A DNA stretch of 30,723 nt from Candidatus Poseidoniaceae archaeon (GCA_013329925.1 DUJK01000121.1:1-30723); one strand, 5' to 3'; numbered from the stretch's first letter, positions 8,095 through 14,072 are shown. Notes: generated by a model not told the origin, from the sequence alone. A program made the numbers and translations.

Positions 8095-8151
8095 GAGAGG
8101 GACCCAACTAAATGCAACCTTGCATTCAAATTAAGCAGTGAAAAAGAACTA

Positions 8152-8157
8152 TTTAAG
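8152..8157 (+). promoter_or_regulatory. Putative TATA box (TTTAAG) of the M28 gene with A-rich BRE-like sequence upstream
   Basis: gaaaaagaactaTTTAAG, 29 nt before the ATG at 8181. Confidence 0.5.
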
Positions 8158-8180
8158 TGTCCGTCTGTTAGGAGTCAGTA

Positions 8181-9401: not shown

Positions 9402-9472
9402 TATAAAGCGCGGACAAATAGGGGAAGAGGTATTATCCGCGCACGGTTTCGTAACTACATGGAGGGCCAGCG

Positions 9473-10318
9473 ATGACTGAGAAAAGCTTCGAAGAGCGCA
9501 GGTCTGAACTGAGGAAACGTGTTAAATCACAACTTGATTCACCAGAGGAACCAACACATTATTCTGATTTAGATAATAGTGATGAACAAATTCAACAAGA
9601 ATTTATTGTCAAACCGATGATTGATTTAGATTATGATGAGCGCGCTAAACTGCGGATGGTTGCCGCTATTGCGATACTAGTAGGCAGTATTTTAGGAATA
9701 ATAAGTGGTGGAATATTGCTGCAAGGTAATCCCGATGATTTGCTAAACTCTTCTCTGTTTAATGAAGCAGAAACTGTTGATTTAACTGGCCAAGTACTCA
9801 CTGATGACGGAGTAGCCATAAACAATGCAACTATACAGTTGTATGAAGATGATTCAAATTCAGCGATACGAACGGTTCTTACTAACGATAATGGTTACTT
9901 TCAATTGGAAAACGTAAAACCTGAAACGATGGTAATTAGAGTCGTAAAAGATGATTTTACCAGTCTTGAACGGACATTTATTGCCGAAGACGGATTGATG
10001 AGCCCTTTTACTATGAAAAGTGGTAATTCATCAAGTATAATTCAAGAAAACTTCGTAGGTAGTGACGGTGGATGGTCGCTTGAAGCCGCTGTTGCTTTGT
10101 CGACATTTCTTGGAGTGATGACAATTATCACTGGATTTATTGGCATACAGGCATCAGTCGAAACCCGAAGAGCAAGTCGATACAGAAGGACTCAGTACCT
10201 TGCCGGAATTAGTTTGTTTAGTCGCGGTCTTATTTGGATTGGCCCGATTTTAATTTTGGCTGGAATGGCCTTAAATTCGCTAGTAAAAGACCAGTATGAA
10301 GATTATTTAGAGGATTGA
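9473..10318 (+). CDS. Membrane protein with a carboxypeptidase-regulatory-like (transthyretin/Ig-type) extracellular domain
   Basis: TM (MVAAIAILVGSILGIISGGILL), then LTGQVLTDDGVAINNATIQL...TNDNGYFQLENVKP, then further hydrophobic helices. GGAGG SD upstream. Confidence 0.7.
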   Translation: MTEKSFEERRSELRKRVKSQLDSPEEPTHYSDLDNSDEQIQQEFIVKPMIDLDYDERAKLRMVAAIAILVGSILGIISGGILLQGNPDDLLNSSLFNEAETVDLTGQVLTDDGVAINNATIQLYEDDSNSAIRTVLTNDNGYFQLENVKPETMVIRVVKDDFTSLERTFIAEDGLMSPFTMKSGNSSSIIQENFVGSDGGWSLEAAVALSTFLGVMTIITGFIGIQASVETRRASRYRRTQYLAGISLFSRGLIWIGPILILAGMALNSLVKDQYEDYLED

Positions 10319-10320
10319 AC

Positions 10321-11673
10321 ATGTACCTCATTTCAGTCGAAGGAGGAGATGGTTCTGGCAAAGGAGAGGCAGCTAGGATAATTAGTGAAATTTTGAATGA
10401 CTTTCCATTTCCAAAAATACATTCAACTCACGAACCTAGACGGCATAGTGAACTAGGAAAATTAGCCCTTGAATCAGTAATGAAAGGAGATAAAACCCCA
10501 CTACAGGAAGCCGGTCTATTTGCAGCAGACCGATTAGACCATTCGCATACCATAATCAAACCGCTGCTTGAGAAAGGGCATATCGTGGTATCTGATAGAA
10601 ATATACATTCATCATTGATTTACCAAGGAATAGTTGGAGATTTAGGGATTGATGATGTTGTTAAAATGAATGCCGCTGCAATGGTACCAGATTTGGTGAT
10701 TTGGATTGATTGCGATCCTGCAAAAGCGATGAAAAGAATTCAATCTGGAACATTAAGAATGACTAGTAATAAACAGGAATATTTTGAAACTACTGAAATT
10801 CAAAAGCAAATACGCAATGGCTTTAGGGATTTATTATCAGGCAAAATTAAGGTACCCGAGCCATTTGATAAATGTCAGGTTGTTGGTCCGATTTTAAATG
10901 AATCGGGACTTGATGAATTAAAGAAAAAACTAAGTGATACTCTCAGGACTTTCTTTAACAAAAAACCATCTCCCTTAAACGTAGATAGCGACAAAGTAGA
11001 CAGATACTTACTTTCTAAAATGGTCGGCAACTTAGAAACTCAAACTAGACTCCCAGGTGCTCCTAAAAACATGACTGCTATACATGAAGGTTGGCTAGCA
11101 AATACCTCTCCGGCGAAATGGATGGAATTTGCAGAAAATAATTGGCCAAAAAAATCAGCTAAGGAATTTGATGTCCCAATTAATCCTTTTTCATTATCTT
11201 CATGGTCAATTCTTGGTTCTCTATCGATTATTGGAGGTTCAACTGAAGTTCCGAAATTGCATAAACTGCTTGGACCTCACAGAATGATCACTAGAAGACA
11301 TACCCAGCGTTTAGTTAAGTGGTTAGAAGAAGAAAAGTGGATTAACAAACAATTCAATCACGTACCATTTTCCGATGCTAAAGTATTCAAACTTAGAGAA
11401 GAGCGTTTAGGTTTTGGTAGACTCGCCTTGGCAATGTGGCCGCTAAGAACATCGATATCGTCATGGAGAAGGGCTAATCCTGATAGCAAATGGGAAGTAT
11501 GCCTTGAAGAGATTATTCAAAACAATCCAGCAAAAATTCCCGCTTATCAACTAAAAAAATGTGTTATAGACGTCATTGAAAGATTGGTAATACTTACCAG
11601 CGGACATCGGGAATGTCCGGTACCTAGTAGTACAGAAGAACTAATTATTTGGTGGAAAACCTTACCGCCTTAG
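10321..11673 (+). CDS. tmk: Thymidylate (dTMP) kinase with about 235 aa C-terminal extension
   Basis: EGGDGSGK P-loop, HEP, LFAADRLDH, SDRNIHSSLIYQG, PDLVIWID. ATG at 10321 is preferred over TTG at 10315 because GAGG lies 7 nt upstream. Confidence 0.85.
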   Translation: MYLISVEGGDGSGKGEAARIISEILNDFPFPKIHSTHEPRRHSELGKLALESVMKGDKTPLQEAGLFAADRLDHSHTIIKPLLEKGHIVVSDRNIHSSLIYQGIVGDLGIDDVVKMNAAAMVPDLVIWIDCDPAKAMKRIQSGTLRMTSNKQEYFETTEIQKQIRNGFRDLLSGKIKVPEPFDKCQVVGPILNESGLDELKKKLSDTLRTFFNKKPSPLNVDSDKVDRYLLSKMVGNLETQTRLPGAPKNMTAIHEGWLANTSPAKWMEFAENNWPKKSAKEFDVPINPFSLSSWSILGSLSIIGGSTEVPKLHKLLGPHRMITRRHTQRLVKWLEEEKWINKQFNHVPFSDAKVFKLREERLGFGRLALAMWPLRTSISSWRRANPDSKWEVCLEEIIQNNPAKIPAYQLKKCVIDVIERLVILTSGHRECPVPSSTEELIIWWKTLPP

Positions 11674-13154: not shown

Positions 13155-14072
13155 ATGCGCGAGGTTACCCTGTTTTGGAAAAGAACACGCCTTGCCAAAC
13201 TAGACATAGGAGGTATTGTCGACATATTTACCCAACTAGAGTTTGTATCTTATGTCAAAAGAGTTCCCAAAGATATCAGAATTATTCTAAAAGCAAATTT
13301 TTCCGAAGGCCATTCGCCAAAAGACATGAAGGAACTTCATTTCTTGGAGTTACTAGAAGTAATTCTTGAACCAAAAGATAGCTCAGATAGCTATATATTA
13401 CTGGCTAGGATAAACCACTCGGTATCTAATTTGAATGCTAGGACCAATGGGACAAGTGCAGTACCAGGTTGTAGATTAGATGGAGAAGGACTTACTTACA
13501 TAATTCAAGGACCGCCACTGAAACTACGTTTGGTTTCTACACTGGCAAGGTTAATCTCTCAGCCCGATCGAATTAGCGCTAGAAGTTTAGATTTCAATTC
13601 TACTTTAGACCGCTCAGTTCTTAATACAAAACAGTTGAAATTGGCAAAATATGCTTATGATAGGGGGTATTTTGACGTCCCTAAGAGGGTAAGAATTTCT
13701 GATTTAGCGACTGATATAGGCTTAGCAAGAGCCACAATTTCAGAACATTTGGCTAAGATTGAATCAATCTTGATGGATGATATGTTCTCCTCATTCGATG
13801 AAATTTACACCGATCCAAAGGTAGTAAAAAGCCTAATAGAAACCGTAGTCTTAGAATCCGAAAGTGAAGAACTGGACATTACGGATAACATGCTGTATAT
13901 TCTAAACAATATCAAAAAATCAATAAAAACTCAGTTAGGTAATTTAACTGAGGATTTGTATGAGGGTATTACTGGTGAGGAAATGATTGAATTAGCTGTC
14001 AAGGAACACCAAGAAAATCTTAGTTATATCGATGATGTAATCGAGGAAAAACTAAAATCTTCATCGAAATAA
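13155..14072 (+). CDS. Bacterio-opsin-activator-type HTH-10 transcriptional regulator with acidic C-terminal extension
   Basis: LNTKQLKLAKYAYDRGYFDVPKRVRISDLATDIGLARATISEHLAKIE matches the archaeal HTH_10 signature. Confidence 0.88.
   Translation: MREVTLFWKRTRLAKLDIGGIVDIFTQLEFVSYVKRVPKDIRIILKANFSEGHSPKDMKELHFLELLEVILEPKDSSDSYILLARINHSVSNLNARTNGTSAVPGCRLDGEGLTYIIQGPPLKLRLVSTLARLISQPDRISARSLDFNSTLDRSVLNTKQLKLAKYAYDRGYFDVPKRVRISDLATDIGLARATISEHLAKIESILMDDMFSSFDEIYTDPKVVKSLIETVVLESESEELDITDNMLYILNNIKKSIKTQLGNLTEDLYEGITGEEMIELAVKEHQENLSYIDDVIEEKLKSSSK

Follow-up and report, generated by a model that had tools for sequence, protein, structure and literature searches.

NadR and BirA are bacterial bifunctional regulators in which an enzyme is joined to a helix-turn-helix (HTH) domain, and NadR includes a P-loop kinase domain. 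An archaeal precedent for such an enzyme-regulator fusion is RbkR (PMC5397151). All three proteins unite a small-molecule-metabolising enzyme and an HTH or winged HTH in one polypeptide, with the HTH at the N terminus and a conserved operator upstream of the pathway genes. The thymidylate kinase (Tmk) described here, Tmk-wH, has the same combination, but its modelled winged helix is C-terminal and lies within a larger domain, and no operator common to its own operon and thyA was found. The kinase half shares its fold family with the solved dTMP kinases of S. aureus (2CCJ), T. maritima (3HJN) and S. tokodaii (2PLR). Common to these enzymes and Tmk-wH are the P-loop Lys, the acidic residue before the P-loop, the thymine-stacking Phe, the Arg of the DR motif, S..YQ and a basic LID. 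Unlike known Tmks, the protein is twice as long and has GKG rather than GK[ST], DRN, an EPRR insertion and a longer LID; its 245-aa C-terminal domain is lacking in the Tmks of the sister order and of other Thermoplasmatota. The winged helix modelled within that domain has the topology and flanking helices of MarR/HxlR/PadR/Fur-type domains (ZitR 5YHZ, Synechococcus Zur 7NE9, HxlR-like 3DF8 and SSV1 F-93 1TBX; Z 6.4-6.8) and, like them, a basic recognition helix. It departs from them in matching no sequence family, in its extra helices and in being fused behind an enzyme.

The fusion belongs to the Poseidoniales (Marine Group II), which are among the most abundant planktonic archaea and of which, to our knowledge, none is in culture. 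A literature search found no paper on a Tmk-winged-helix fusion and nothing relevant on Poseidoniales Tmk. Neither the database name, ‘dTMP kinase’, nor the one precomputed Pfam domain, PF02223, reveals a second domain. A preliminary description had proposed, from one stretch of DNA, that a Tmk is fused to a winged-helix-like domain, and this is borne out by a 450-aa frame that combines matches to kinase profiles with a modelled winged helix. The window, that is, the whole stretch of DNA analysed, comprises 30,723 nucleotides from a Candidatus Poseidoniaceae archaeon. The gene probably starts at the ATG at 10321, because every aligned homologue opens with (M/V)YLI; a TTG two codons 5′ of it overlaps the stop of the preceding gene. 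The features of the protein are as follows.

10321 to 11673, plus strand: the tmk-wH open reading frame, one uninterrupted frame of 450 aa plus stop
10321 to 10932, plus strand: thymidylate kinase domain, residues 1-204, recognised by PF02223, TIGR00041 and PDB Tmk chains
10342 to 10368, plus strand: P-loop GGDGSGKGE, residues 8-16, with Gly15 where Ser/Thr is usual
10735 to 10791, plus strand: LID region, residues 139-157, with R146, K151, E153, F155 and E156; it exceeds the LID of sister-order Tmks
10933 to 11670, plus strand: C-terminal domain specific to the order, residues 205-450; it is basic and helical and includes the modelled winged helix
11194 to 11394, plus strand: winged helix, residues 292-358, by DSSP on AlphaFold2 models (helices 292-303, 310-316 and 325-337; strands 341-345 and 354-358)
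11272 to 11331, plus strand: HTH turn and predicted recognition helix (G318 P319 x R321 ... R326 H327 T328 Q329 R330 .. K333), the most conserved stretch of the C-terminal domain

The kinase domain is readily recognised. Residues 6-173 match PF02223 (Thymidylate_kin) with an E value of 6.5e-31 and 107.9 bits against a cut-off of 27, the protein scores 111.1 bits with the dTMP kinase equivalog model TIGR00041 (cut-off 83.25), and PDB Tmk chains align with residues 4-172 (E about 4e-12). Invariant in 30 aligned sequences are D10, K14, F67, R71, D92/R93, S97, Y101 and Q102, which are the ligands of dTMP and of the transferred phosphate known from solved Tmks. The stacking Phe, the Arg after it, the Arg of the DR motif and S..YQ are thus all present, and the Tyr of DRY is Asn. 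The P-loop GSGKGE had been called atypical, and it is so throughout: G13, K14 and G15 are found in all 30 full-length fused sequences aligned, which retain Lys14 and lack the Mg2+-ligand hydroxyl of GxxGxGK[ST].

Short relatives provide the reference for these changes. The Tmks of the sister order and of other Thermoplasmatota are 194-226 aa long, score 143-159 bits with PF02223, and have canonical EG(I/V)DG(C/T)GK(S/T)T and DRY motifs. Four differences are confined to the fused proteins and present in all of those aligned: the EGGDGSGKG P-loop, DRN for DRY, EPRR for EPT-DG, and a LID extended by about 7-9 residues and containing R146 and K151. Their presence in every aligned fused sequence and absence from the short relatives suggests that the four changes arose along with the fusion. 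In the full-length model, pLDDT drops below 50 at residues 145-154, as expected of a mobile lid.

Genome content indicates what the protein must do. PF02223 was found in 61 of the 61 Poseidoniales genomes searched, 60 of them over the cut-off, and almost every match falls within an open frame of about 445-530 aa, apart from those on short or split contigs. The preliminary description had raised the possibility of a second, canonical tmk. In 50 of the 61 genomes none is over the cut-off and tmk-wH is the sole such match. The window's genome (76% complete) has no PF02223 match of any kind besides tmk-wH, and G003, a genome of the same genus in one contig and 96% complete, has exactly one. ThyA is encoded in the window's genome (E 5e-129) and in 58 of the 61 genomes of the order; ThyX was looked for and none was found. 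With ThyA present, dTMP is made de novo and needs phosphorylation, hence a Tmk; as the sole PF02223 match over the cut-off in most genomes, Tmk-wH must therefore first of all be that enzyme. In most Poseidoniales genomes no other enzyme for this essential DNA-precursor step can be recognised, which raises the question of how Tmk-wH works without the canonical Mg-ligand Ser/Thr.

The loss of that residue, together with the change from DRY to DRN, could lower or alter catalysis. Taken further, the same two changes would fit a Tmk domain that is a catalytically dead sensor, a pseudokinase, with dTDP supplied by another enzyme, and 11 of the 61 genomes do have an extra pair of Tmk-like genes in which one gene has a canonical GKS P-loop. 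We consider a pseudokinase very improbable. GKG P-loops are the norm in adenylate and UMP/CMP kinases, which are active, so catalysis need not be lost by this substitution; neither the catalytic Lys and Arg nor any substrate-binding residue varies among the aligned sequences, and most genomes encode ThyA and have no other Tmk over the cut-off from which dTDP could come.

The second domain is as widespread in the order as the kinase. A word-indexed protein search with Tmk-wH returned 609 proteins of 247-788 aa. The best 120 of these 609 are 381-460 aa long, almost all about 450 aa, share 63-97% identity with the query over at least 85% of its length and, where named, are dTMP kinases of Poseidoniales or Poseidoniaceae. 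With the C-terminal 246 residues alone as query, the domain was found in 42 of 42 genomes of family f1 and 21 of 21 of family f3. It was found in none of eight genomes of the sister order in the same class, and other Thermoplasmatota families gave only one marginal match (E 0.005) with a stop codon inside. The fusion is thus real and no oddity of a single genome, as it recurs across all 61; the same frame of about 450 aa in nearly all of them rules out an assembly or read-through artefact. When 1.84 billion representatives were scanned exhaustively with HMMER, the C-terminal domain as query gave 49 matches only, all of them either full-length fusions, in which the domain begins near residue 207, or short fragments. 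P0127 (232 aa) was considered as a stand-alone C-terminal domain and rejected, as it lies at contig ends, where its frame runs open up to the start of the contig, and is a fragment; no other stand-alone form is among the 49 matches. The conserved basic winged-helix domain of Tmk-wH was found nowhere else.

Residues 205-450 (about 245 aa) match no Pfam or NCBIfam family, and the fold was approached through structure prediction. The AlphaFold2 model of the C-terminal domain, made from an alignment of 37 sequences with 25-77% identity, has a pLDDT of 87.8 and a pTM of 0.84. The full-length model has a pLDDT of 88.2 and a pTM of 0.86, and this pTM suggests a defined inter-domain arrangement. DSSP on both models gives the H1-H2-H3-strand-wing-strand topology of a winged helix. 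In the full-length model, helices 223-240, 264-274 and 277-282 lie N-terminal of it, and helices 360-371, 373-385, 391-401, 408-425 and 438-446 lie C-terminal.

Structural neighbours were sought with VIA-align against 48,161 representative chains and then on the Foldseek top 1000, and winged-helix-containing proteins fill the best 50 places of each search. Best are ZitR and a Zur DNA-binding domain, both with Z 6.8, the latter superposing over 71 residues with an rmsd of 1.7 Å. They are followed at Z 5.3-6.6 by SSV1 F-93, HxlR-like proteins, QsrR, Fur, PadR, Orc/Cdc6 and RIO2; these Z values are middling, and the alignments span just model residues 55-217 or so. Foldseek searches of the PDB with the C-terminal domain gave nothing at E 0.001 or better, the best matches being MarR-family proteins from E 0.011 upward. 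A shape search of the ESM Atlas returned the domain's own cluster at TM 0.85 and others at TM about 0.31-0.37, mostly HxlR, Fur, PadR and MarR clusters plus two clusters of nucleotidyltransferase type; a feature search there with the same domain scored 0.79 or lower, none of it significant. No HTH-family sequence profile was significant, and the best Pfam result was MarR at E 0.048, in 3 of 37 members of the C-terminal domain family. The sole returns of a PDB profile search with the domain were alphaRep repeat proteins, which were rejected as spurious.

The models thus support well a winged helix within the C-terminal domain, as the preliminary description had required, and the structural neighbours, with Z up to 6.8, contain winged helices. 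As modelled, the domain as a whole is without a known structural counterpart, the extra helices around the winged helix being unmatched. The preliminary description had placed a MarR/PadR-type winged HTH at nucleotides 11191-11439 (residues 291-373). The winged helix, at residues 292-358, and its structural neighbours bear out the fold and the position; no family-level match to MarR or PadR was found. A complex prediction with two copies of the domain scored 0.00 and was counted neither for nor against dimerisation. The motif SGHxxCP was considered as a metal or catalytic site and set aside, as it occurs in family f1 only and is lost in f3. As a separate observation, residues 241-263 form a loop between the kinase and the helical domain with a pLDDT of about 50, in which Q241 and L244, inside a Q(T)RLPGAP motif, are invariant in the 30-sequence alignment. 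Being conserved though apparently disordered, the segment could serve in docking or in contact with the lid.

Charge and conservation point to a function for the winged helix. The C-terminal domain has a net charge of +10 and a pI of 9.6, rising to 10.4 in the winged-helix segment, against a pI of 6.4 for the kinase domain and mostly 4-7 for the neighbouring encoded proteins. A pI of 9 or more is found in 30 of 37 homologous C-terminal domains. Between the two main families, identity is 57% in the kinase domain and 30% in the C-terminal domain. The HTH turn and recognition helix stand out within the latter: G318, P319 and R321 are present in 30 of 30 sequences, R326 in 27, H327 in 29, T328 in 24, Q329 in 20, R330 in 24 (with Lys in three more) and K333 in 23 (with Arg in five more). 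A helix that contacts nucleic acid would show such a pattern, which falls short of proof, and the C-terminal domain probably binds nucleic acid.

Winged helices can mediate protein-protein contacts too. Gene order is kept in 21 of 21 loci compared, from both families: a large secreted protein (minus strand), an M28-type peptidase, a membrane protein with a CarboxypepD_reg domain, tmk-wH and DUF2085 (minus strand). The gene immediately upstream is paired closely with tmk-wH.

9473 to 10318, plus strand: membrane protein with a CarboxypepD_reg domain, upstream of tmk; 2 nt separate its stop from the tmk ATG, and the two genes stay together throughout the order

In most loci, 0-18 nt separate the end of the membrane-protein gene from tmk. 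The winged-helix domain might, without binding nucleic acid, be a protein-interaction or scaffold module that docks Tmk to partners, for example replication or dNTP-synthesis proteins or the co-encoded membrane protein, or that simply stabilises a diverged kinase. The order-wide gene pair would agree with this, as would the winged helices of Cdc6/Orc, RIO2, NB-ARC and MukE/F, which are among the structural neighbours with similar Z, and the high full-length pTM, which suggests packing on the kinase. The strong positive charge argues the other way, and so does conservation that centres on the recognition helix, in its basic and polar residues. Coupling to the membrane protein was moreover given little functional weight, because gene overlaps are common in the window's compact genome and the membrane protein's cytoplasmic N-tail shows no conservation between lineages. 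We regard such a module as improbable.

The reading we favour, with a probability of roughly 0.6, is that Tmk-wH is the active housekeeping dTMP kinase of Poseidoniales and carries a lineage-specific, probably nucleic-acid-binding, winged-helix domain. From the architecture, fold, distribution, conservation and charge established here we infer its kinase activity, its nucleic-acid binding and its biological purpose. The N-terminal domain would bind dTMP and ATP and produce dTDP, with GKG as in adenylate kinases in place of a P-loop with the Mg-binding Ser/Thr, and with DRN, the EPRR insertion and the longer Arg/Lys LID as its other diverged catalytic features. The order-specific basic helical C-terminal domain of about 245 residues would bind nucleic acid, DNA rather than RNA, via the RHTQR..K recognition helix. 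The phosphorylation of thymidylate would then take place at the chromosome or be linked to a read-out that depends on DNA. Several points count against this reading: the changed P-loop and DRY motifs, a Pfam score of 108 bits, well below the 143-159 bits of sister-order Tmks, the use of winged helices elsewhere in protein contacts, structural Z values of 6-7, which are middling, and the absence of any structural match for the rest of the domain. The fusion raises the question of whether an archaeal lineage couples dTTP supply to DNA, physically or by regulation.

Regulation had been the proposal of the preliminary description, which took the protein for a nucleotide-sensing transcription regulator. 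Tmk-wH would then be a bifunctional enzyme and transcription factor in which occupancy by dTMP, dTDP or dTTP changes sequence-specific binding by the winged helix, controlling its own operon or nucleotide-metabolism genes in the manner of RbkR, NadR and BirA. The enzyme-plus-winged-helix architecture and the conserved basic recognition helix are compatible with this; the full-length pTM of 0.86 suggests a fixed domain arrangement able to transmit ligand state, and RbkR is an archaeal precedent (PMC5397151). A candidate site for such a regulator lies upstream of the operon.

9408 to 9442, no strand assigned: perfect palindrome GCGCGGA-N21-TCCGCGC in a 71-nt spacer, 30 nt upstream of the membrane-protein gene

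The palindrome encloses a purine-rich tract and TATTAT, together BRE/TATA-like, about 40 nt before the ATG of the membrane-protein gene, and thus brackets a promoter-like element before a gene co-transcribed with tmk. The window's genome has three CGCGGA-N15-27-TCCGCG sites only, all N20-21, against roughly 0.03 expected per genome by our estimate from half-site counts. The other two are G000:C119:1028-1059 and G000:C188:13907-13938; one of them is inside a coding region, in an ORF judged Trm5-like by eye, and the remaining one is in a divergent promoter region by a Roadblock-like gene and recurs in the same place in G003. Among genomes of the family, 29 of 41 have 1-4 palindrome sites, against 0-2 for the reversed-pattern control. 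The operon-upstream palindrome is kept in genera g1, g2, g3 and g143 and is mismatched or absent in part of g4; its core across genera is CGCGG...(G)TATTATCCGCGCA, with a variable spacer.

Several findings weigh against a regulatory role. Spacer and palindrome are missing where the genes overlap (f3 and g17), although the recognition helix is conserved in f3, and in the Thalassarchaeaceae-like f3 genomes the palindrome is no commoner than the control. By our arithmetic, the half-sites are 27-28 bp apart from centre to centre, which is not same-face geometry, and one of the three sites falls within a coding region. The palindrome was rejected as an operator common to the tmk operon and thyA: no CGCGG palindrome was found upstream of thyA in 21 genomes, and a different conserved motif stands there. 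The C-terminal domain, moreover, belongs to no HTH family by sequence. A nucleotide-sensing regulator is hence possible but unsupported, with no operator common to thyA and a palindrome in some genera of one family only, and we think it unlikely. Somewhat more doubtful still is the narrower proposal that in Poseidoniaceae Tmk-wH is a thymidine-nucleotide-responsive DNA-binding protein acting on the CGCGG-N-CCGCG around the BRE/TATA-like internal promoter of its own operon and at two or so other conserved sites in each genome. If it were true, occupancy of the palindromes by Tmk-wH would tie expression to the dTMP/dTDP pool, and the protein would be the first Tmk-based transcription factor and a functional archaeal counterpart of NrdR-type control of dNTP supply. 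As RNA, 9408-9442 would form a modest hairpin (-13 kcal/mol, z -2.5); an Rfam scan of the window found no RNA family. The palindrome may be an operator or an RNA hairpin, and it is a lead, not support, for the candidate link to Tmk-wH.

Other sequence elements were observed in the course of this comparison. Upstream of thyA, some 40-50 nt from its start, a (C)CTCAAGTGCTTCC motif is conserved in several Poseidoniaceae genera (L042, L057-L085), and the version in the window's genome is TATCAAAGACTTCC. A variable hairpin-like stretch and then a GGTGA Shine-Dalgarno-like site come after the motif, which may be a regulatory element for thymidylate synthase. Three genes downstream of tmk, at 13155-14072 on the plus strand, a 305-aa protein matches HTH_10 (bacterio-opsin activator type, E 6.6e-16) and is another candidate binder of local regulatory sites. 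At 8095-8180 and in the equivalent spacers of L022-L041, a short palindrome occupies the divergent promoter region between the genes for the 1403-aa secreted protein and the M28 peptidase. Its arms vary by genome yet stay complementary, being AATGCAA-CC-TTGCATT here and AGAACAC-TGAG-GTGTTCT in L022, and a conserved GGTATTTAA TATA-like box adjoins it.

The accessory Tmk-like genes mentioned above are short and form a tandem pair in each of the 11 genomes; no such pair was found in the window's genome. One example is at 2934-4342 of L086 (G014:C4:117500-124500), and similar pairs occur in G042:C148 and G019:C26. One member has a GKS P-loop and a canonical DRY, and the other a degenerate P-loop, GPDHVGRS. 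The ORFs that flank the pair in L086 appear by eye to be glycosyltransferase-like and ParB/Srx-like.
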